This document shows positions 1 to 9,120 of a DNA stretch of 44,727 bases, piece after piece. Made by a program: the position numbers and the translations under genes. The notes under the pieces were generated by a model that searched no databases, was not told the DNA's origin, and saw nothing but the letters and a program-made list of their open reading frames with translations. The stretch comes from an uncultured Gammaproteobacteria bacterium. GTDB lineage: Bacteria; Pseudomonadota; Gammaproteobacteria; UBA9214. Every line of letters starts with the position of its first letter. Position 1 is the stretch's first letter. The stretch lies in NCBI GenBank assembly GCA_963827755.1, contig CAWHCQ010000036.1:1-44727 (forward strand), given 5' to 3'.

Positions 1-12
1 TGGAGCCAACCC

Positions 13-42
13 AAAGGCTGCTTATGGCCGAACTCGGACTAG
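13..42. repeat. 30-bp dyad site (AAAGGC-tgctta-TGGCCG-aactcg-GACTAG)
   Basis: Fits the AAYGDC-N6-core-N6-GNCNTT pattern seen about 20 times in 1-8.2 kb; TGGCCG core at offsets 13-18. Confidence 0.6.
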
Positions 43-73
43 TCGGCAGATTGATGGTATCAAGGAGCATTAG

Positions 74-739
74 ATGACATCTCGGTCCTGCAAGAATATT
101 GCATGTGCTGCAGCCATGGCTACTGTGCTTCTATATGTTGAGACAACCTATTCCGCCACACAATTTCGTGACGAAGGGATAGCAGCGGAAGCCTCGATTA
201 ATGAGTACATTGGCTCTAATGCATGTTCAGAGTGCCATCAAGGAAAATATGACGACTGGTCAGGAAAGCACATGTCCCATTTTGTTCGTTACAGGGATGA
301 TATTACCGAGTCACTTCCGGTAACTCTGAGTAATGCTCCGATTAACGGGGATGAGGTTTTCCTTGTAGTCGGTGATAAAAAGAAGATGGCTTTTGTAGAC
401 AAGCACTGGCAGGTGTTCCCGTATCAATATCACATTGGAAAACAGAAATGGATAAAGAGAAATGAGTGGCGCAATCAAGATTATCGTCTGCGTTGCGGGT
501 CTTGCCATACTGTCGGATTAAATCCAAAAACGAGACAATTCGTTGAACTTAATGTCGGATGTGAGGCGTGCCATGGCCCTGGTAGAAAACACGCTGAGAA
601 CCCAGCAGAGAAGAAGATGAAGGTGCCGGGAAAAACAGATGGACGCGATGTGCTTTTTACCTGTCGTAGGTGCCATAACGAAAGAAGGAAGCATTCTCGC
701 CCCATCCAAACGTTTAGCGGTGTATTCCACGGGAAATAA
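74..739 (+). CDS. Secreted tetraheme c-type cytochrome (c554/c552-like)
   Basis: SD AGGAG upstream; signal-like N-terminus; motifs CSECH, CGSCH, CEACH(GPG), CRRCH; visibly AT-richer than the core genes. Confidence 0.85.
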   Translation: MTSRSCKNIACAAAMATVLLYVETTYSATQFRDEGIAAEASINEYIGSNACSECHQGKYDDWSGKHMSHFVRYRDDITESLPVTLSNAPINGDEVFLVVGDKKKMAFVDKHWQVFPYQYHIGKQKWIKRNEWRNQDYRLRCGSCHTVGLNPKTRQFVELNVGCEACHGPGRKHAENPAEKKMKVPGKTDGRDVLFTCRRCHNERRKHSRPIQTFSGVFHGK

Positions 740-786
740 AGGTAACGGTTAAACCGTCATTTACACAATCGGCCTATATTTATCCA

Positions 787-1019
787 ACACCTCATCATCA
801 GCCGATTTGCGACTTTGTGAATGTCTGGTTCTGCCGGTGTCTCCGTTGCCGGTCTCAAAAACAATCGTTATTCAGGGTGCGCCGAAGGGTAAGTGACTGC
901 TCAAAAAGGACGTTACCGGGGGAAGCAGTTGAGTTTTCAGCTAAACGCGTACTTCCAACCCTAAACGGAAGTACAGCATCTTATATTGTATGCCCGAGAT
1001 TGAGGCGAAAGCTGACATC
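787..1019. repeat. Cluster of dyad sites: half-sites at 787 and 820; full sites at 885-914, 944-973, 989-1019
   Basis: Example 944: AACGCG-tacttc-CAACCC-taaacg-GAAGTA. Starts are spaced 59 and 45 bp, as in the other clusters. Confidence 0.6.
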
Positions 1020-1210
1020 TGTGTTAACCCACTTGGAAACGCAGCGTCAAATATAACCGCAGCACTGCAGTCGGCAAACCCCGGAAGACAAATGACGAGC
1101 TACTCTAGCGCTTTTCTTTTGATTTGTCAGCCAGACAACTAGTCGCGTGATTGCAAGACGGGAACAAGACGGCTAAATTGCGCATGATTCATGCATGGGG
1201 AGAAAACGCA

Positions 1211-1780
1211 ATGAGCATGCTCGCAACCGGTTTACTGCTTTGGGTGGTGGTGCACCTGTTTCCGTCGCTGCTGCCGGAGCAGCGGCAAAAACTGATAAGT
1301 CGCATCGGCGACAAGGCCTACCAGGGTATCTTCGCGCTGTGCATCCTGGCCGGGCTGCTGCTGATCGTATTCGGTTGGCGCAGCGCGATCCCGACGCCGG
1401 TTTATACTCCGCTGGCCGAGCTGCGTGAACCTGCGATGCTGCTCGTGGTCATTGCTTTCGTGCTGCTGGTCGCCGCCAACTTCCCGTCGACACGCATCAA
1501 GCGCGTGATCCGGCACCCCCAGCTCAGCGGGGTGCTGTTGTGGGCGATCGCGCACCTGTTGATGAACGGCGACAGCCGATCACTGCTGCTGTTCTCGGTG
1601 CTGGGCGTCTGGAGCCTGGTTTCGATGCTGACCATCAACCGTCGCGATGGCATCTGGATCAAGCCCGGCAAACCTGACGGCTGGGGCCAGGATATTATTA
1701 TCGTGATCGTGGCGCTGGCAGTATCAGCCCTGGCAGTCTATTTCCACGAGTACCTGGCCGGTATCGCCCTGATCACCTGA
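1211..1780 (+). CDS. nnrU: NnrU family membrane protein
   Basis: GLLLWVVVHLFPS...YQGIFAL and RHPQLSGVLLWAIAHLLMNGD signatures; ATG 1211 follows GGAG. Confidence 0.85.
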   Translation: MSMLATGLLLWVVVHLFPSLLPEQRQKLISRIGDKAYQGIFALCILAGLLLIVFGWRSAIPTPVYTPLAELREPAMLLVVIAFVLLVAANFPSTRIKRVIRHPQLSGVLLWAIAHLLMNGDSRSLLLFSVLGVWSLVSMLTINRRDGIWIKPGKPDGWGQDIIIVIVALAVSALAVYFHEYLAGIALIT

Positions 1781-1844
1781 GTGAGAATAATTCGACAGCC
1801 CCGCCGACTGGCGACGATAGCCGGGCCCGAGTATTCGGCCTACA

Positions 1845-2131
1845 AATGTCTCTTGTGGGTCGGCGAAGAGCGCAACCAGGTTATGAATGTCTTCTCTGTG
1901 TATGAACTTGCCGTTCAGACCAGTACCCGGGATGGCTAGAGTTGGCCGACTCCAGTCTTCGTCGGGCATTGCAACAATCGGTGAGAGGTGGGCCAGGAAC
2001 GGCAGGTATCAGCCCGCAACCAGCCGTTAAGCAAATAACTATCTAATAATTAGCTAAAAGACAGCAAACGACCCAACTGCGACATTCAGCGTAAGTTACT
2101 GTATGTCTTAAACGTACTGGAACCTGTCGTT
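1845..2131. repeat. Cluster of dyad sites: half-site at 1845; full sites at 1886, 1931, 1998, 2057, 2102
   Basis: 1998: AACGGC-aggtat-cagcccg-caacca-GCCGTT. 2057: AAAGAC-agcaaa-CGACCC-aactgc-GACATT. Spacings 45/67/59/45. Confidence 0.75.
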
Positions 2132-2204
2132 CCCGGGCCGGGTTCTGGACCGAGACTATCGATCCATACAGGACCTTCACAGTCCCTGATTTGAATGGGG
2201 CATC

Positions 2205-2786
2205 TCAGGCAACCGCTCGCCAAGCCGCCAGTAAAGCGAACACCAGGAAGACACCACCGCTCATCCGGTGCAGCCAAAGATGAGGAAGGCGCTGCAACAT
2301 CGTGCGTCCGGCCCATACCCCAAGCACTGACACCATTACCAAAGAGGCAGTGGCACCCAACCACACTGGTATAGGATCTAAACTACCTGCCAATCCCGCT
2401 ACCGCGATCTGTGTCTTATCGCCGAATTCGGCCACAAAGATCAACAGCAGTGTAGTAAGGAAAATGCCGTGGCCCGACCTCTCCGCCACATCCCCTGACT
2501 CGTCATCATCCTGTTTGCATAAGGCGTGAATACCAAAGACACCGAACAATACGGCTACCAATCCAGCAGTCACACGTTCAGGCACCCAGGCAGCCACTCC
2601 CGCGCCGAATAATACTGCCAAGGTATTAAGCACAAGAAATGCTGTCGTCGCTCCCAGTATCACAGGCCAATGACGGTGACGGGCCGCCAAGGTCATGCAC
2701 ACCAACTGGCTCTTGTCACCGATCTCCGCCAGAGCAATGAGGGTAAAGGTCGATAAGAAAATGGAAAGTGATTCAGGTGGAACCAT
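2205..2786 (-). CDS. TMEM165/GDT1 (UPF0016) family Ca2+/Mn2+ transporter
   Basis: Two E-x-G-D-K-[ST]-Q motifs (AEIGDKSQ, AEFGDKTQ); hydrophobic. Confidence 0.92.
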   Translation of the reverse strand: MVPPESLSIFLSTFTLIALAEIGDKSQLVCMTLAARHRHWPVILGATTAFLVLNTLAVLFGAGVAAWVPERVTAGLVAVLFGVFGIHALCKQDDDESGDVAERSGHGIFLTTLLLIFVAEFGDKTQIAVAGLAGSLDPIPVWLGATASLVMVSVLGVWAGRTMLQRLPHLWLHRMSGGVFLVFALLAAWRAVA

Positions 2787-2920
2787 ATATGAATGACAGT
2801 TTTGCTATGCCAGGGAGGAACTTTATTATACAAAGCTCACATCGCGAGACCGATCAAAGGTAAGAGCAATCTATACCCCACTATGACAAAACGAATACAG
2901 ACTTGCCTGGGGATAATCCT

Positions 2921-3862
2921 TTACTCCTGGCAAAGATGAACTTCCACAATTGTGTGAACGATGCCAAGATCCCTGGGGATGAGACTTTTGTAGTACTCCG
3001 GCTGCTTGGGTGTGTCACTCACTACAGCTAGTGTGGCTGAATAGATTCCAGGCCCAATGGACCAGATATGTAGATCAGCAATTCGGTTATCATCAACACT
3101 CTCGATGGCGGCACGAGTTTGTTCCAGCATGACACTAGGGGCCTGATGATCCAGCAGTATGCCACTTGTATCGCGAATCAACCCCAAGGACCACCGAGCC
3201 ACCAAAATAGCACCAACGATTCCCATTACCGGGTCCATCCAATTCAGACCCATAAATTTTCCAGCAAGCAGAGCGAAAATTGCTAGCAACGATGTAAGTG
3301 CGTCTGCCAAGACATGAAGATAAGCGGCACGGAGGTTGTGATCCGTATGCTCATGGCGGTGATGGTGTGGGTCTGCATGCTGGTGTTCATGGTCGTGTCC
3401 ATGATGATGCCCCCCCAACATAATCATGCTGACACCATTAACTATTAAGCCCAGAACTGCAACTACAATGGCTTGATTAAAGGCAATCTCGACAGGGTTA
3501 AATAAACGGTTAATACTCTCCCACGCCATTAGGAGTGCAAAGAGGGCAAGTAATACCGCACTCGTATAGCCAGCGAAGGCATTGACCTTGCCTGTCCCAA
3601 AACAGAAACGCGAATCTGCGGCACACCGACGAGTATAGACATAGGCGATGGTTGTGATGCCGAGGGCTGCTGTATGCGAGGCCATATGCAAACCATCTGC
3701 CAGCAGAGCCATTGAGCCGTATACGAGGCCCGCAGTAATCTCGATGACCATCATCGTCGCGGTGATGAGTATTACCCAAAGGGTGCGGCGCTCACCAGGT
3801 CTTACCTTGTCCTGACCGAAGATATGGTCGTGTTGCCATTGTCGTGTGGTTTTAGTGTGCAT
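2921..3862 (-). CDS. dmeF: CDF family Co/Ni efflux transporter, DmeF-like
   Basis: SMALLADGLHMASH, His-rich loop, NLRAAYLHVLADALTS. Confidence 0.88.
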   Translation of the reverse strand: MHTKTTRQWQHDHIFGQDKVRPGERRTLWVILITATMMVIEITAGLVYGSMALLADGLHMASHTAALGITTIAYVYTRRCAADSRFCFGTGKVNAFAGYTSAVLLALFALLMAWESINRLFNPVEIAFNQAIVVAVLGLIVNGVSMIMLGGHHHGHDHEHQHADPHHHRHEHTDHNLRAAYLHVLADALTSLLAIFALLAGKFMGLNWMDPVMGIVGAILVARWSLGLIRDTSGILLDHQAPSVMLEQTRAAIESVDDNRIADLHIWSIGPGIYSATLAVVSDTPKQPEYYKSLIPRDLGIVHTIVEVHLCQE

Positions 3863-4106
3863 TATGCTTTCCTTTCTGACTTGCTACCTGAATTGAGGGG
3901 CATGGCACTGTACCAAAGGAACAGTAAACACAGCAGTCACCATATTTGGGGCGTAATATCACACCGCAGCCCTTACACTCGTAGTAGAACTGGCAACAAT
4001 CAGTTGGCATCGTTTCAGTCTCACAGTGTCCACATTCAGGGCATGTGATAGTGGATTGCTGCACCACCGCGACATTTGCCTTAATTTGATTCTTGTTCTC
4101 ACTCAT
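3852..4106 (-). CDS. GDCCVxC domain-containing Cys-rich protein
   Basis: CPECG...MPTDCCQFYYECKGC...GDCCVYCSFGTVPCP; overlaps the dmeF start. Confidence 0.85.
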   Translation of the reverse strand: MSENKNQIKANVAVVQQSTITCPECGHCETETMPTDCCQFYYECKGCGVILRPKYGDCCVYCSFGTVPCPSIQVASQKGKHNAH

Positions 4107-4158
4107 ATTTCGATAATATCAACAATGGCTTATTCGGGAGCCGTTTTCATTTGTGCTG

Positions 4159-4390
4159 AATGTCCTGTTTTGCCTCTCCCCGCAAGTGTGAATACAGATT
4201 GCTGGGTGTGAACGGTCACTTATGCTGCTACTGAGACCTCCACATGCTGGCTGGGAATGACCGGTTCTGGCCGAACTGAGAAGTAGATTGACCAATCACA
4301 TATCCAGGTGTCTGGCGTATATCCGATATTGGCCCGAACTCGGAACTACATGAAATTTTTATATAAGATTCAGCTAAACGACGGGTGTCG
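4159..4390. repeat. Cluster of dyad sites: half-site at 4159; full sites at 4211, 4256, 4318; left half at 4377-4390
   Basis: 4256: AATGAC-cggttc-TGGCCG-aactga-GAAGTA. 4211 to 4256 is 45 bp; 4318 to 4377 is 59 bp. Confidence 0.7.
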
Positions 4391-4879
4391 GTCCTTTCCT
4401 ACGTCCTGCGTTTGTCTTGAACTGAGGTCCCTTCCCTCCACCGGCATTACCCGGCTTCCCCGGTACTACGGACCTCTCCGCCACCCCAAGGCGCCCGGCC
4501 TGTCCCTCACGGGCGTCCGGTTGGTCATCCTTCACCACGCCAAGGGGCTTCCCGTGTTGCGTGCGTTTCCCTTGTGTACATGCTGTCGCCACTACCCCGG
4601 CACAGTGACTGAGGGCACTGCTTTGCTCATTCCCCCCAGTCATATCAGCCTTCCCCGCATGGGTGGGCGGGTCGGCCTGTGCAACGTCCTTTTCGAGGAT
4701 TGCTCAGCGTTCACTCACGTTACGGCCTGCACACTCACTGGATCATCTAAAATGATCTTTTACATCAGAGGCTTCAGCCACTTCGTTACCTCCATGACTG
4801 CTCCGATTGCTTCCGGCTGGAGCAAAATTGCCGGGTGGGACTCTCACCCACTGGAAAACGCCGCCTTCGCACGGCGCAC
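4391..4879 (-). mobile_element. Group II intron 5' fragment (about DI-DIII; no RT ORF, no DV/DVI)
   Basis: Minus strand begins GTGCGCCGTGCGAAGGCGGCGTTTTCCAGTGGGTGAGAGTCCCACC. DIII-like segment AGTACCGGGGAAGCCGGGTAATGCCGGTGGAGGGAAGGG. A stem-loop at 4654-4671 has ACCCA in its loop, complementary to the 5' exon end TGGGT. Confidence 0.85.
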
Positions 4880-4895
4880 ACCCAAGTGGGACGTT
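4880..4895. repeat. Half dyad site forming the intron 5' exon (ACCC-aagtgg-GACGTT)
   Basis: Matches offsets 15-30 of the CGACCC-core sites at 2057 and 5811. Confidence 0.65.
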
Positions 4896-5058
4896 CAGTA
4901 CGACTGGTCTCTTTCCATACTTTCTATACCTGATTTCCGAGTATTTAAAAACTCTACTGGCTTGATCTGCTCAAGACTTGCTGCAATAGTACTGAAAATT
5001 TCGCTCATTAAAAAATGGGTTCGTGTAGCCATTTGTTATCTATGCTGCTTCCTGGAGT

Positions 5059-5676
5059 GTGATTTTGGAAACGTTAGGACAAACGGAAGTGAAACGAGTT
5101 TTGAACGTGGGAGGCAATAACAAGGCGATCCCACTGCCCTCTCAATATACTGAGTTTGAGCATTTGCTGCTTGATATAGACCCGAAAGGCTCGCCAGATA
5201 TTGTGTGTGATGCACGCCAGCTTACATCTCTTGAGGCTGGTCAGTTCGATGCAGTTTATTGTTCACATAATCTTGAGCACTACTATAGACATGATGTACC
5301 GAAGGTTCTTGCTGGATTCTTGCACGTTCTTAAGGACGGTGGCTTTGCGCAAATACGAGTACCAGACATAGCAGAAGTGATGAAAGTCACTATCGAGCGA
5401 GGTTTAGATATAGATGATGTACTTTACGAGTCGCCGGCTGGGCCGATTATGGTTCTAGATGTACTGTACGGTTATAGCGTTGAAATAGAGCAAAGCGGTC
5501 AAGACTTTTACGCCCACAAAACTGGTTTTACACAGAAATCCCTTTTGACAGCACTACGAAAAGTTGGATTCTCAAATATATACAGTATGACAGGTAACCT
5601 CGAAATTAATGCTATAGCGCTTAAAGGGATACCCGACCAACACACACGCACACTATTCAATCTTCCAAATAGCTAA
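5059..5676 (+). CDS. Class I SAM-dependent methyltransferase-like protein
   Basis: VLNVGG motif I-like, DIVCDA, FDAVYCSHNLEH, VLKDGG; GTG start after GGAG. Confidence 0.7.
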   Translation: MILETLGQTEVKRVLNVGGNNKAIPLPSQYTEFEHLLLDIDPKGSPDIVCDARQLTSLEAGQFDAVYCSHNLEHYYRHDVPKVLAGFLHVLKDGGFAQIRVPDIAEVMKVTIERGLDIDDVLYESPAGPIMVLDVLYGYSVEIEQSGQDFYAHKTGFTQKSLLTALRKVGFSNIYSMTGNLEINAIALKGIPDQHTRTLFNLPNS

Positions 5677-5684
5677 TAACTCTG

Positions 5685-5885
5685 AATGTCCGAAAGTGGC
5701 CGAAGGTACGCGTTTACTGTTTCAGCCAGGAACCAGGTTCATGCGATCGGGAACGGCAAGTATCCGCTCGAAACCGGAAGTACATGATTTACCCATATAA
5801 GATTGGACTAAACGACGGGAGTCGACCCAACCACGACCTTCATCGTAAGTGTCTGCATGTCTTAAAAGTACTGTAAGTAGTCGTT
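5685..5885. repeat. Cluster of dyad sites at 5685, 5752, 5811, 5856
   Basis: 5685: AATGTC-cgaaag-TGGCCG-aaggta-CGCGTT. 5811: AACGAC-gggagt-CGACCC-aaccac-GACCTT. Spacings 67/59/45 are identical to 1931-2102. Confidence 0.75.
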
Positions 5886-6026
5886 CCCGAGCCGGACTCT
5901 GGTCGGCAACCTTTGACATAATTTGTTATAAAACTCCTCGTACTTCTTGTTGAACTCAAAGAAATTCAGAGGGTTGCCGATAACCTCGTATTGTACGGAA
6001 AAGGGCTTTTATTCTTTCTTTAATCA

Positions 6027-8063
6027 ATGAACTCGGAGCAGAAAATACCATATCGCCCTGACATCCAGGGCCTGCGAGCGATTGCTATCGCGATAGTAGT
6101 GCTGGCACACGCGAACATCCCTGGCTTTGCAGGCGGATTTGTTGGCGTGGATGTGTTTTTCGTACTCTCCGGGTTTCTGATTACCGGCCTTTTAGTAAAG
6201 GAGCGTCTGGAGACCGGGACGATCCGTTATGGTACGTTCCTTTCCCGACGGTTACGGCGCCTGTTGCCCGCACTGCTTGTCATGCTGGTTACGGTGCTTT
6301 TCCTGGCATCGATGCTGCTGTCCAGTTATGAAGCGCAAATGCAGACCGGTTCATTAGTGTATTCGGCGACCTGGACCAGCAACTTCTACTTCGCCTTCGC
6401 CGAGTTTGACTACTTTGCGGCTCTGAAGGCCAAAGATGTCTTCCTGCATACGTGGTCGCTGGGCATCGAGGAGCAGTTCTATGCCGTTTGGCCGTGGCTG
6501 GTATCGCTTTCCTTTGTAATCGCTGCCGCCAGCTCCAAACCGGATCGTGATTTCCGGTCTCTGTTCACCGTCATTGCCATCTTTTTCGTTATCGGTATCG
6601 GCCTTTGTCTCTACTGGGCGCAAACTGCGCCGTTGCTTTCGTTCTACATGATGCCATCCCGCGGCTGGCAGTTTGCCCTGGGCGCGAGTGTATTCGTCTA
6701 CTCGCACAGATCTCGATTGGGGTGGTCTGGCGACTCCGGATTCCTTCACTCGACCACTACGATGCAACTGGCTGGCGCCCTGGGCCTGGTACTTATTATT
6801 GGCAGCGCGGTGTTGCTGCATACCGAGCTTAACTACCCGGGCTATTACGCACTGTTTCCGTCCATTGGTGCGGCGCTACTGATACACGCTGGAACCGGCA
6901 CGCAAGCACCCGCCGTGAGCCGCATACTCGCAGGCAGGGCCTTCGTCTGGCTGGGTGACCGCTCGTATTCTCTGTACTTGTGGCATTGGCCGGTCCTGTT
7001 GCTCGGTGGTGCATTCGGCCTGGCGGAGCTACCGGCTGGTATTGCCGCTCTTGTAGGCATTGCAATCCTGCTCGCAGTAGTGAGCTATCACTGGATCGAA
7101 AGACCGTTCTGGAAGGGTCGCTTCAGTGCGACTCCCACGCGACTCGTAACGTTGACGTCTGCACTGGCTATAGTCGTTACGTTCGGGCTGTCACACTCGC
7201 TGAGTACCGTGGTTTTCAGGGACGCAGTTGCATCGGCCAATCACGGCGACACTGATTCCCGTGCCGATGCACCCAACATCTTTGTGGCGTTCAAGTGCGA
7301 TAGTTGGTACCACAATTCAAAGGTTGTGCCGTGCGTGATCGGCGACAGCAATGCCAGATATACCGCTGTGCTGATCGGAGACAGCATCGGCACGCAGTGG
7401 GCTTCATTATTGCCGGAAATCTACAAAGAGCCTGACTGGCAAGTATTGGTTCTGACCAAATCTGCGTGTGCGATCGCAGACCTTGAATACTACTACAAGC
7501 CCGCAGGCAAGATGTATGACGTCTGCACGGAGTGGCGGAACAGAAGCATCGAGTATATCGAAAGGCTTCAGCCGGATATTGTGTTTATCGGCAGCTCATC
7601 CACTTATAACTTCTCAAAGTCCGAATGGGTTGGAGGCACAGAGCGTGTAATCGCAAAGCTCGCCTCGGCCGTGCGACACGTCGTAATCATTGCGGGCACG
7701 CCGGTACTCAGTTTCGACGGGCCGAGCTGCCTCAAAGAGCCGTACCGTTTCACGTCTCGTCTGCGCAACAGTCAGCACATCTGTGAAGAAGCGTTGATGA
7801 ATACAGCCAGCGATGATGTTGCTACGTACATGGGGCGGGCGGCGAGCGGCATTCCCAATGTACATATACTGAACCTCAACGACCTGGTCTGCCCCGGACG
7901 AAGCTGCGCAGCGCGTAGCAGGGACGGACTCACCGTATTCCGCGATCATCAGCACCTGACCGCCTCTTTCGTGGTGGCCCAGACACCGGCGGTGTTGTCC
8001 AGGCTTAACTCGATTGGCCTGGGGCCGTCGTATCTGAAAGACATCGTGTCCCTGGCAGACTAG
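6027..8063 (+). CDS. Acyltransferase-3 with C-terminal SGNH domain (OafA/YrhL-like O-acetyltransferase)
   Basis: YRPDIQGLRAIA, GGFVGVDVFFVLSGFLIT, HTWSLGIEEQFY, IGDS and DHQHLT. Confidence 0.92.
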   Translation: MNSEQKIPYRPDIQGLRAIAIAIVVLAHANIPGFAGGFVGVDVFFVLSGFLITGLLVKERLETGTIRYGTFLSRRLRRLLPALLVMLVTVLFLASMLLSSYEAQMQTGSLVYSATWTSNFYFAFAEFDYFAALKAKDVFLHTWSLGIEEQFYAVWPWLVSLSFVIAAASSKPDRDFRSLFTVIAIFFVIGIGLCLYWAQTAPLLSFYMMPSRGWQFALGASVFVYSHRSRLGWSGDSGFLHSTTTMQLAGALGLVLIIGSAVLLHTELNYPGYYALFPSIGAALLIHAGTGTQAPAVSRILAGRAFVWLGDRSYSLYLWHWPVLLLGGAFGLAELPAGIAALVGIAILLAVVSYHWIERPFWKGRFSATPTRLVTLTSALAIVVTFGLSHSLSTVVFRDAVASANHGDTDSRADAPNIFVAFKCDSWYHNSKVVPCVIGDSNARYTAVLIGDSIGTQWASLLPEIYKEPDWQVLVLTKSACAIADLEYYYKPAGKMYDVCTEWRNRSIEYIERLQPDIVFIGSSSTYNFSKSEWVGGTERVIAKLASAVRHVVIIAGTPVLSFDGPSCLKEPYRFTSRLRNSQHICEEALMNTASDDVATYMGRAASGIPNVHILNLNDLVCPGRSCAARSRDGLTVFRDHQHLTASFVVAQTPAVLSRLNSIGLGPSYLKDIVSLAD

Positions 8064-8115
8064 CTTCGAGTTAAACTGATCCTTCCCCGCCTTTGCAGAA
8101 CGATTGCATGACGGG

Positions 8116-8190
8116 AACGGCAAGTTTTGCTGCTACTGCGGCCTTCGCTGCAATCCGGCAGATGTCTCTTTCTGGCCGTTACTCGCCCTT
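8116..8190. repeat. Terminal pair of dyad sites at 8116 and 8161
   Basis: AACGGC-aagttt-TGCTGC-tactgc-GGCCTT, then 15 bp, then GATGTC-tctttc-TGGCCG-ttactc-GCCCTT. Same cores as the 4211/4256 pair. Confidence 0.7.
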
Positions 8191-8318
8191 TTATTGATCA
8201 ACGCTAGATTACGAGACCAAAGGTACTGAATACACTCGAAACCTGCCCTTCGGCCTTCCAAATAGTGCCATTAAGAAAATCTGAATATTAATAGTAATTT
8301 CCACAGTCGACCAGCATT

Positions 8319-8466
8319 CTACTTCCCGCAATAAACTGCCGTGATCTGCTCGCGCTCATGACCCAGCTCCCGGCTGATAGTAAGCCGTGCCTGGCGGTCA
8401 ATCTCGCGCTGTTCAGTGGTTAGTACTTTGACTTTCGGCCCGCCAGCAGCCGGGGCCTTCCACCCA
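8319..8466 (-). pseudogene. C-terminal remnant of an Integrase_1-type tyrosine recombinase
   Basis: GWKAPAAGGP...DRQARLTISRELGHEREQITAVYCGK* with box II LGH and terminal catalytic Tyr; upstream sequence no longer resembles an integrase. Confidence 0.75.
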
Positions 8467-8616
8467 TCCGCTTTGGAAGGATGGATCCACAGCATTCTGC
8501 CGTTGTGCATCACAGGATCCGAATACGCTCAGTTGCCACGAGTACACGCAGTAGCCACGGTTAAAATCGATCGAGGGCAACAGCGTAAGAACACGAACCC
8601 GGCCTGGCATTCATGA

Positions 8617-9120
8617 TTACCACGCCGTGGCCTCACTGATAACGCTTTCGATCAATTGCACGACTTTCTGCACGGCCGCCCCTGAGTTTTCATCAGGCAA
8701 TGTAAACGGGCGACGATAGGACAGGTAGACGTGCTTCGGGTCAGCCGTCAGCACATAGATGCTGATGGTGAACGGGCACAGCAGGATATTCTCGTAGTTC
8801 GCCTGCGCAAGCTGGTGGGAAATACTTGCACTGCAAAACTCGACGGTCTCGGCTGCAATAAAAACATTCTCGGTAATACCAAACGCCTCGCCTGTCCGGT
8901 TCAGCATATCGCTGGCCGGCAGGGTGTGGGCGATATTGATACCCTTGCCCACGATGGCTGTCTTGACGCTGTCAAGCACATCCGCGAAATCACCCTCCAC
9001 CTTGAAGGACCTGACCGGTGGATCGTCGGCACAGCCGCTTACCGGCAGTAACAGACTGATACAGGCCAGCAGGATAACCTGGTACAGCCCGGTTCGCAGA
9101 GTTTGTTTGAATTGATTCAT
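8617..9120 (-). CDS. DUF302-like exported protein
   Basis: Signal peptide, then GDFADV...VEFCSA...LCPFTISIY pattern; SD GGAGG. Confidence 0.65.
   Translation of the reverse strand: MNQFKQTLRTGLYQVILLACISLLLPVSGCADDPPVRSFKVEGDFADVLDSVKTAIVGKGINIAHTLPASDMLNRTGEAFGITENVFIAAETVEFCSASISHQLAQANYENILLCPFTISIYVLTADPKHVYLSYRRPFTLPDENSGAAVQKVVQLIESVISEATAW

Follow-up and report, generated by a model that had tools for sequence, protein, structure and literature searches.

A truncated group II intron copy in what appears to be its natural homing site, an intergenic repeat of an uncultured gammaproteobacterium

The minus strand of positions 4391–4879 carries what we consider, with a probability of about 0.85, to be a dead, 3′-truncated copy of a mobile group II intron lying in its natural homing site. 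The window analysed here is the whole stretch of 44,727 nt from an uncultured Gammaproteobacteria bacterium, whose source assembly comprises 52 contigs and is 91.8% complete with 5.4% contamination. We propose that the copy arose by retrohoming into a low-copy intergenic repeat, in which recognition would depend mainly on base pairing between intron RNA and target DNA, and that it would have entered TTGGGT/CGAC recently (a solidus within a motif marks the insertion point). The feature is an ordinary homing event, unusual only in the clean truncation of the intron.

The intron fragment and its boundaries

An Rfam scan of the whole 44.7-kb window returned a single match at gathering level, RF02003 (group-II-D1D4-4) at 4853–4715 of the minus strand, which scored 109.9 bits (E 7.8e-24) against a gathering cut-off of 49 bits and spans model positions 1–138 of 138. 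The model for domains V and VI, RF00029, had no match in the window because the copy ends at intron position 489, and of the reverse transcriptase (RT)/maturase gene only 19 codons are retained. With domains V and VI and the RT absent, the window copy can neither splice nor move. The parts of the fragment are:

4391–4879, minus strand: group II intron fragment, domains I–III and the start of domain IV, corresponding to the first 489 nt of a ~1985-nt intron
4715–4853, minus strand: 5′ part of domain I, the Rfam group-II-D1D4-4 match (109.9 bits)
4391–4447, minus strand: remnant of the RT reading frame, ATG and 18 codons (MPVEGRDLSSRQTQDVGKD) followed by the break, as judged against the 464-aa ORF of a complete copy in a relative (L046)

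At the 5′ junction the minus strand reads ...GTACTGAACGTCCCACTTGGGT/GTGCGCCGTGCG..., the final exon base being 4880 and intron base 1 being 4879; a longer reading, ...GTACTGAACGTCCCACTTGGGT/GTGCGCCGTGCGAAGG..., likewise places the first intron G at 4879. The intron begins GTGCG (4879–4875, minus strand), in agreement with the group II 5′ end GUGYG. The closest relative, G033, has an orthologous locus on its contig C39 that is without exactly 4391–4879 and reads ...CCCACTTGGGT followed immediately by CGACACCC..., or at greater length ...GAACGTCCCACTTGGGTCGACACCCGTCGTTTAGC.... Aligned to this locus, window positions 2600–4390 are 98.8% identical and positions 4880–6379 are 99.6% identical, and since the two blocks abut directly in G033, 4391–4879 was inserted cleanly, as 489 nt between T and C, with neither target duplication nor target loss. 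A preliminary description of this DNA had put the intron 5′ end at 4879, inside the core of a site, and the empty orthologue together with the RF02003 match shows that placement to be exact.

The 3′ end is that of a broken element. Intron copies of six relatives continue past ...GTAGGAAAGGAC with AGGAGATTGGG... into the reading frame, where the window reads CGACACCCGTCGTTTAGC instead; in full copies AGGAGATTGGG... comes after GGAAAGGAC, and in the window GGAAAGGAC abuts CGACACCC. As the relatives' copies run on into the RT frame and the window copy does not, the window keeps only the first 489 nt, the break falling 57 nt into the RT gene. The notion that the last 30 nt of the piece form a second left half-site was dropped because full copies show the same sequence running on into the RT gene.

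Matches to 4391–4879 occur in 27 of 54 genomes of the bacterial family. The window's own genome (G000) has three, namely the window copy, one on contig C14 that is 86% identical across the full 489 nt, and a stub of 91 nt on contig C35. G033 carries a copy at a different site, on its contig C96, that is 100% identical over positions 1–408, up to the contig end. This identical copy in G033, taken with flanks that are 98.8–99.6% identical to an empty orthologue, marks the insertion as recent.

The full-length element in relatives

The complete copy L046 measures 1985 nt and encodes an RT of 464 aa, in which a domain search recovered RVT_1 (117.8 bits) and GIIM (57.5 bits) and no further domain. 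The full element thus combines a compact domain I–III ribozyme with an RT/maturase that lacks an endonuclease domain; its ends are 5′ GUGCG ... CUCUAC 3′, its domain V is canonical, with AGC and GAAA in the hairpin, and its domain VI is unusually long at ~115 nt. RF02003 was matched in all seven relatives' loci scanned and RF00029 in three of the seven, with 43.3 bits in L052, 39.2 bits in L051 and 33.7 bits in L046, the latter two being below the cut-off of 40.

At least 534 relatives of the RT are present in species-representative genomes. The best 80 of these 534 share 73–100% amino acid identity and belong, by their record titles, to Bradyrhizobium, Paraburkholderia, Caballeronia, Cupriavidus, Mesorhizobium, Methyloglobulus and many metagenome-assembled genomes. 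The introns of these best 80 occupy one and the same motif, typically GAATGTCCGCTTyGGGT/CG, which also flanks RT homologues of 74–80% identity in other Proteobacteria. The literature searched yielded no description of the lineage or of its target, and the Zimmerly intron database may well catalogue the lineage.

The target site

The 26 distinct 5′ exons from the bacterial family mostly consist of GAAnGnC, five or six variable bases and a terminal TGG(C/T), the GAA lying 17 nt (at times 16 or 18) upstream of the insertion point. Among the 30 distinct 3′ exons, 24 begin with CG, and roughly half resemble CGAyTCCyGTCnTTTAG over a longer stretch. The intron lineage is specialised on the site family GAAnGnC-N5-TGGY/CG. 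Such specialisation had been claimed in the preliminary description; it is upheld both by these exons and by the recurrence of the motif in other Proteobacteria, and distant homologues, which might have been expected in unrelated targets had the claim been wrong, sit in the same motif. The occupied site and the empty sites of the window are:

4880–4898, minus strand: 5′ exon, the left half of the target (CTGAACGTCCCACTTGGGT), defined by sequence and by contiguity in G033
4373–4390, minus strand: 3′ exon, the right half of the target (CGACACCCGTCGTTTAGC), 16.5 bits, contiguous with the left half in G033
1929–1964, plus strand: empty site, 22.8 bits, its core forming the left end of the block common with G033
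2053–2088, minus strand: empty site, 26.5 bits
4254–4289, plus strand: empty inverted partner (GGAATGACCGGTTCTGGC/CGAACTGAGAAGTAGATT) ~120 nt from the occupied site, 19.1 bits
5683–5718, plus strand: empty site, 20.6 bits
5807–5842, minus strand: empty site (TGAAGGTCGTGGTTGGGT/CGACTCCCGTCGTTTAGT), 29.8 bits, the best in the genome
8159–8194, plus strand: empty site, 21.3 bits, its core forming the right end of the block common with G033

Sites were scored with a weight matrix built only from the intron flanks of other genomes (23 5′ and 28 3′ exons), with reversed sequence as the control; the 3′-exon matrix was derived from full-length copies and has a background 99th percentile of 7.5 bits. 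In G000 the scan found 17 sites of at least 20 bits (2 in the control); with the threshold lowered to 18 bits it found 23 (8 in the control). Six of these 23 fall within the first 8.2 kb of the window, with cut points at 1946+, 2070−, 4271+, 5700+, 5824− and 8176+, and the remaining sites of the genome cluster on contigs C4, C14 and C35. The sites form inverted pairs ~124 nt apart within repeats of ~150–220 nt, and the genes between them are ordinary, encoding a cation-efflux protein, GDT1, a methyltransferase and an acyltransferase. Two of four distant genomes scanned contain 15 and 11 empty sites (control 1) and the other two contain none. A strict pattern scan of the genus failed to separate signal from control in most genomes (3 against 5 in G000) and was set aside as evidence. 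The sites had been put forward in the preliminary description as a real and abundant target class; their reality stands, the count of 17 against 2 at 20 bits or more bearing it out, but with ~20 sites per genome the class is low-copy and not abundant.

The same description spoke of a dyad site, a term that fits the window copy, although weakly. Once reconstituted, the window site folds at −4.4 kcal/mol (z −0.3), the 17 empty sites of G000 have a mean z of −0.43, and 40 reconstituted distant targets have a mean z of 0.01, with at least six pairs across the junction in 18 of the 40. These weak folds, in empty sites and distant targets alike, rule out the target as a hairpin class. Whole paired elements do not fold as one hairpin either (z 0.5, 1.1, −0.9 and −2.6 for the four elements folded), and the 5′ exons (−45 to −5, n = 26) contain no stem-loop as a class, their mean z being −0.28 with two of 26 below −2. 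The dyad is a property of the window copy and not of the site class, whose constant feature is sequence.

Exon–intron base pairing

The elements that pair, or may pair, across the two junctions are:

4654–4671, minus strand: hairpin CCCGC-CCACCCAT-GCGGG containing the EBS1, ACCCA at 4664–4660, from covariation and the consensus fold
4880–4884, minus strand: IBS1, TGGGT, the five bases that end the 5′ exon, from sequence and covariation
4683–4689, minus strand: candidate EBS2-like stretch GGACGTT, an unpaired joiner 15 bases upstream of the EBS1 junction, from complementarity and the consensus fold
4889–4895, minus strand: candidate IBS2, AACGTCC, exon positions −16 to −10 and inside the conserved GAAnGnC block, from complementarity
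4592, minus strand: candidate EBS3, the G of ...CCGGGGUAG/UGGCG at intron position 288, which would face exon base +1 (C at 4390), from covariation

In the window copy TGGGT and ACCCA form five of five pairs. Across 46 distinct pairs of exon and intron the best 5-nt match averages 4.04 of 5, compared with 3.38 ± 0.09 after shuffling, and none of 2000 shuffles reaches the observed mean. Twelve of 13 family copies match at the last two exon bases, exons ending in GT facing ACCC(A/T) in four copies and exons ending in GC facing GCCA(A/T) in eight, and the single mismatch belongs to one old copy (80% identity). More distant copies pair through other letters (TTGC with GCAA, ACGT with ACGT, GGAG with CTCC, CACC with GGTG). 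In the consensus fold of 23 diverse copies an 8-nt EBS1 loop caps a 5-bp stem, which belongs to a three-way junction within the final third of domain I (the domain closes at alignment columns 26–28 and 290–292); at four of the five stem pairs both partners have changed in at least one copy. Textbook architecture likewise places EBS1 near the 3′ end of domain I, a part of the domain that the Rfam model does not reach. The covariation shows that the ACCCA loop is the EBS1 and pairs with the last five exon bases. The preliminary description had noted this stem-loop at 4671–4654, with ACCCA at 4664–4660, had seen that ACCCA is complementary to the exon end and had assigned it to the EBS1 position; the coordinates prove exact, the complementarity is complete in the window copy and exceeds every shuffle over the 46 pairs, and the fold of domain I, with its covarying stem near the domain's 3′ end, agrees with the assignment.

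A second contact is probable. GGACGTT and AACGTCC are complementary at seven of seven positions in the window copy, and over the 46 pairs the match is 4.33 of 7 against 4.13 ± 0.07 after shuffling, a modest excess that 14 of 2000 shuffles reach. Covariation is seen in three copies where GGTC accompanies GACC and in one where GGCC accompanies GGCC, and the pairing fails in some copies, namely L020 (one of seven) and, with poor matches, L024 and L140. GGACGTT is probably an EBS2-like contact, which would account for part of the conserved GAAnGnC block. Some four variable bases separate the candidate IBS2 from the IBS1, which is 5–6 bp long.

On the 3′ side, 39 of 43 copies have C at exon position +1, and the four exceptions (G, A, A and T) carry C, T, T and G, respectively, at the EBS3 candidate. 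Only these four copies are informative, so the single G at 4592 is tentatively paired with exon base +1. In the consensus fold the candidate follows the closing helix of domain I, whereas EBS3 normally lies inside that domain.

Site cores and recombination

The 489-nt piece might have arrived by another route, in which recombination at the site core, either site-specific or homologous between repeat copies, delivered a left half-site with an intron remnant already in it. These elements are repeated and mosaic, and the cores do behave as breakpoints. The only block common to G000 and G033 at 97–98% identity, window 1943–8178 (6.2 kb of gene modules), has both ends exactly at TGGC/CG cores (1946+ and 8176+, corresponding to 1797 and 7540 of locus L197 on G033:C39), with different half-sites beyond. 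We nevertheless hold this route to be very improbable. On both sides of the piece, sequence 98.8–99.6% identical to the empty G033 locus runs collinearly right up to the junctions, so that neither half-site was exchanged, and TGGGT and AACGTCC fit the EBS1 and the EBS2-like stretch of this particular copy perfectly, as if the RNA had chosen the site.

The ends of the common block are what site-specific recombination at the cores would leave, or else an accident of two draft assemblies, and with two breakpoints in two such assemblies core recombination is only a lead. We think it unlikely that the sites are more than a passive landing pad and act as the crossover points of an undescribed recombination system that shuffles modules, the intron entering exactly where crossover takes place (TGGC/CG); if they did, the clean 3′ truncation could also reflect core events. 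A break in the synteny of close relatives exactly at site cores may outweigh our main finding in importance, as may the exact truncation.

Positions 1–9000 of the window, which hold all seven sites, have a G+C content of 0.44–0.57 compared with ~0.6–0.66 for most of the rest, and this region looks like an island of gathered modules. Its GDT1 and cation-efflux genes are adjacent, and in two relatives their nearest homologues (76–86%) lie ~100 kb apart on one contig. Comparison of the second site cluster, on contig C4, with four relatives mapped no breakpoints, the relatives' contigs being too fragmented. A search of the 91.8%-complete G000 found no serine recombinase. A 339-aa tyrosine recombinase is present in two copies (G000:C14:11755–12768 and G000:C15:2322–3336, the latter frameshifted), and its homologues, at 86–93% identity, are scattered through eight other genomes of three genera, a patchy distribution that suggests a horizontally moving island. 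The C14 copy adjoins a site and was considered as the site recombinase, but the candidate was rejected because the link does not recur: none of 20 other loci, comprising the homologues in other genomes and the C15 copy, has a target site beside the gene.

Intron class and the integron alternative

Introns of the IIC-attC type home into the attC sites of integrons, imperfect hairpins of the form R″-L″...L′-R′ in integrase-linked or CALIN arrays, and the preliminary description had offered them as a parallel. Taken literally, the parallel would make the window element a true IIC-attC intron and the 30-bp sites the attC sites of a chromosomal integron. In 25 of 54 family genomes an integron integrase scores above the curated cut-off, contig C40 of G000 carries a remnant of such a gene, the target sites occur between gene modules in array-like clusters, and the closest solved RTs are IIC enzymes. 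The available text of PMC3001079 also reports IIC-attC introns from chromosomal arrays of environmental Proteobacteria.

Several observations tell against this identification, to which we attach very little credence. The attC sites in the integron of a relative are canonical (ATAAC...GTTA, ~55–70 nt) and do not resemble the target sites, and neither of the two integron loci scanned contains a target site. In G000 no integron integrase exceeds the cut-off and no repeat array lies beside the remnant. The paired elements do not fold into a single hairpin (z 0.5, 1.1, −0.9 and −2.6), and the 5′ exon has no stem-loop (mean z −0.28, two of 26 below −2). Insertion occurs at TGGY/CG, in the centre of the site, and not at the base of an attC bottom-strand hairpin, whereas the published IIC-attC insertion point is TTGT/T in the available text of PMC7923331. 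A candidate EBS2 exists as well. The integron reading of the sites was rejected on this evidence of integrase, attC, fold and site scan, and the proposed parallel survives as an analogy only, the attC sites being unlike the targets, the 5′-exon stem-loop missing and the insertion motif different.

The integrase remnant itself occupies G000:C40:95643–96103 (locus L013) and matches TIGR02249 at positions 15–82 (24.7 bits) and 249–314 (105.9 bits), the middle being missing.

The features expected of class C (IIC) introns in general, a 5′-exon stem-loop directly upstream of an IBS1 of 3–4 bp and no EBS2, are not those found, the IBS1 being at least 5 bp. Three features make a typical IIC intron less likely: the missing upstream stem-loop, an IBS1 of greater length, and the probable EBS2. 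Similarity of the RT to enzymes of solved structure, 172.9 bits to GsI-IIC, 161.7 to 7uim and 151.1 to a IIB enzyme, does not resolve the class, and in tblastn searches the RT is 30–34% identical to those of plasmid-borne introns of Sinorhizobium and enterobacteria. The best member of the Rfam clan is D1D4-4 in eight of eight loci scanned, the top clan match alone being visible, and the solved Oceanobacillus IIC intron belongs to Rfam group-II-D1D4-3 in the available text of PMC3965019, D1D4-3 being the one D1D4 family that papers allowed us to match to an intron class.

Origin of the 3′ truncation

The break joins ...GGAC to CGAC..., and since ...CUAC precedes CG... at the end of the full intron, the joined parts have only AC in common (GGAC/AGGAG inside the intron and CTCTAC/CG at its end, the solidus here marking the break points). 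One account is that the window copy was born truncated by an RT template jump, to which we give just short of an even chance. During target-primed cDNA synthesis the RT would have jumped from the terminal AC to the internal AC at 488–489; the observed product would follow directly if cDNA synthesis changed template to the internal AC once the final two bases had been copied. Group II intron RTs switch templates readily. The other account, whose chance we set only a little lower, is that a full copy later lost position 490 to the end by a deletion at the same 2-nt microhomology; such a deletion would have ended exactly at the intron–exon boundary, which would be a coincidence. Of 20 family copies that begin at position 1 but end prematurely, 3′-exon-like sequence follows the window copy (16.5 bits) and perhaps L048 (10.3 bits), so that an exact 3′ junction exists in at most two of 20 and a process that produces born-truncated copies is not common. 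The loss of 1.5 kb at the 3′ end with single-base precision is relevant to how intron RTs switch templates in vivo.

Contigs from four public runs covering 4250–5000 include none that bridges 4391, and in all four runs the loose contig end at 4391 continues as full-length intron. With no public read or contig spanning it, this junction rests on one assembly. That the junctions or the complementarity are no more than artefacts of assembly or chance is barely credible, even though the assembly has 52 contigs and 5.4% contamination and the metagenomes holding the stretch contain numerous, diverse intron copies and no contig across 4391, because the joined parts share two bases, which we infer to be too few for mistaken k-mer assembly, the 5′ junction and both flanks are reproduced, intron apart, in the independent assembly of G033, and chance is excluded by the shuffle statistics for the pairing and the weight-matrix statistics for the site family.

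Comparison with known systems

The endonuclease-less retrohoming intron RmInt1 resembles the window lineage in its recognition through EBS1 and the candidate EBS2 and EBS3, in an RT without an endonuclease domain, and in a homing site that is a multi-copy element and so provides many safe landing places. The target of RmInt1 is the insertion sequence ISRm2011-2. The window lineage differs in its RT, which is ~32% identical to the Sinorhizobium plasmid copies, and in a target that is a ~36-bp intergenic repeat rather than an insertion-sequence gene, with ~4 variable bases between IBS2 and IBS1.

IIC introns behind terminators have the same compact ribozyme, RT without an endonuclease domain and intergenic residence, and they include the closest solved RTs; the window lineage, however, has neither a hairpin upstream of IBS1 nor a T-run, and its target is set by sequence and not by structure. 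With IIC-attC introns (S.ma.I2 and relatives) it shares an endonuclease-less lineage and a repeated, partly palindromic intergenic site between gene modules, as well as a short IBS1/EBS1 pairing, a one-base IBS3/EBS3 pairing (tentative in the window lineage) and truncated copies in arrays, as far as the available text of PMC7923331 and PMC3001079 describes them. It departs from them in that its targets are not canonical attC sites, in inserting at TGGY/CG in the site centre instead of at TTGT/T in R″, and in having no upstream stem-loop, an IBS1 of 5–6 bp, a likely second pairing and a ribozyme with D1D4-4, not the family of the solved IIC intron, as its best Rfam match.

A repeated extragenic landing pad is likewise used by insertion sequences that target REP elements (ISPpu9, ISPpu10 and IS1397; available text of PMC1525189), which depend on a transposase and not on RNA-guided reverse splicing. 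Set against the pattern of REP and REPIN elements (short stable palindromes in high copy number, inverted doublets and an associated Y1 transposase), the target sites form inverted doublets ~124 nt apart, but their copy number is ~20, their hairpins are weak and the four Y1 genes of the genome lie beside other repeats.

The available text of PMC4424553 distinguishes three target specificities of bacterial group II introns: homing sites, terminators and attC sites. The target described here falls under homing sites, with the peculiarity of being a repeat, and hence fills a gap without adding a category. The lineage is a natural example of endonuclease-less group II introns persisting through pairing-guided homing into harmless intergenic repeat sites, and the natural covariation of its EBS1 reads like a retargeting experiment.

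Other elements in the genome

A classical REP family (GTAGGAGCGGATCTAATCCGCGAT) flanks a Y1 transposase gene at G000:C17:32862–36080 (locus L178) and also occurs on contig C40 (positions 7181–7309 of L013). It is unrelated to the intron target sites, and three further Y1 genes carry repeats of their own. A link between the target sites and RAYT/REP systems was rejected because the genome's four Y1 (RAYT-like) genes are flanked by other repeats.

The C14 copy of the intron is part of a nested arrangement at G000:C14:1718–4536 (locus L012), in which a copy of the same intron (86%) that lacks its ORF contains a second group II intron. The second intron lies between GATGAGGA and GGATGTGG in the joiner of domains V and VI, 8 nt behind the domain V hairpin; it matches RF02005 at 137.8 bits and has the unusual ends UUGCG...GGU and an RT gene with one frameshift. 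On contig C4, positions 87473–87806 (3473–3806 of locus L014) form a ~330-nt repeat that has at least 15 matches in G033 at 69–94% identity. The 91-nt stub of the intron, at G000:C35:13549–13641 (locus L003), stands directly behind the end of a gene (exon ...GTGCCGGGT/) and is followed by unrelated sequence.
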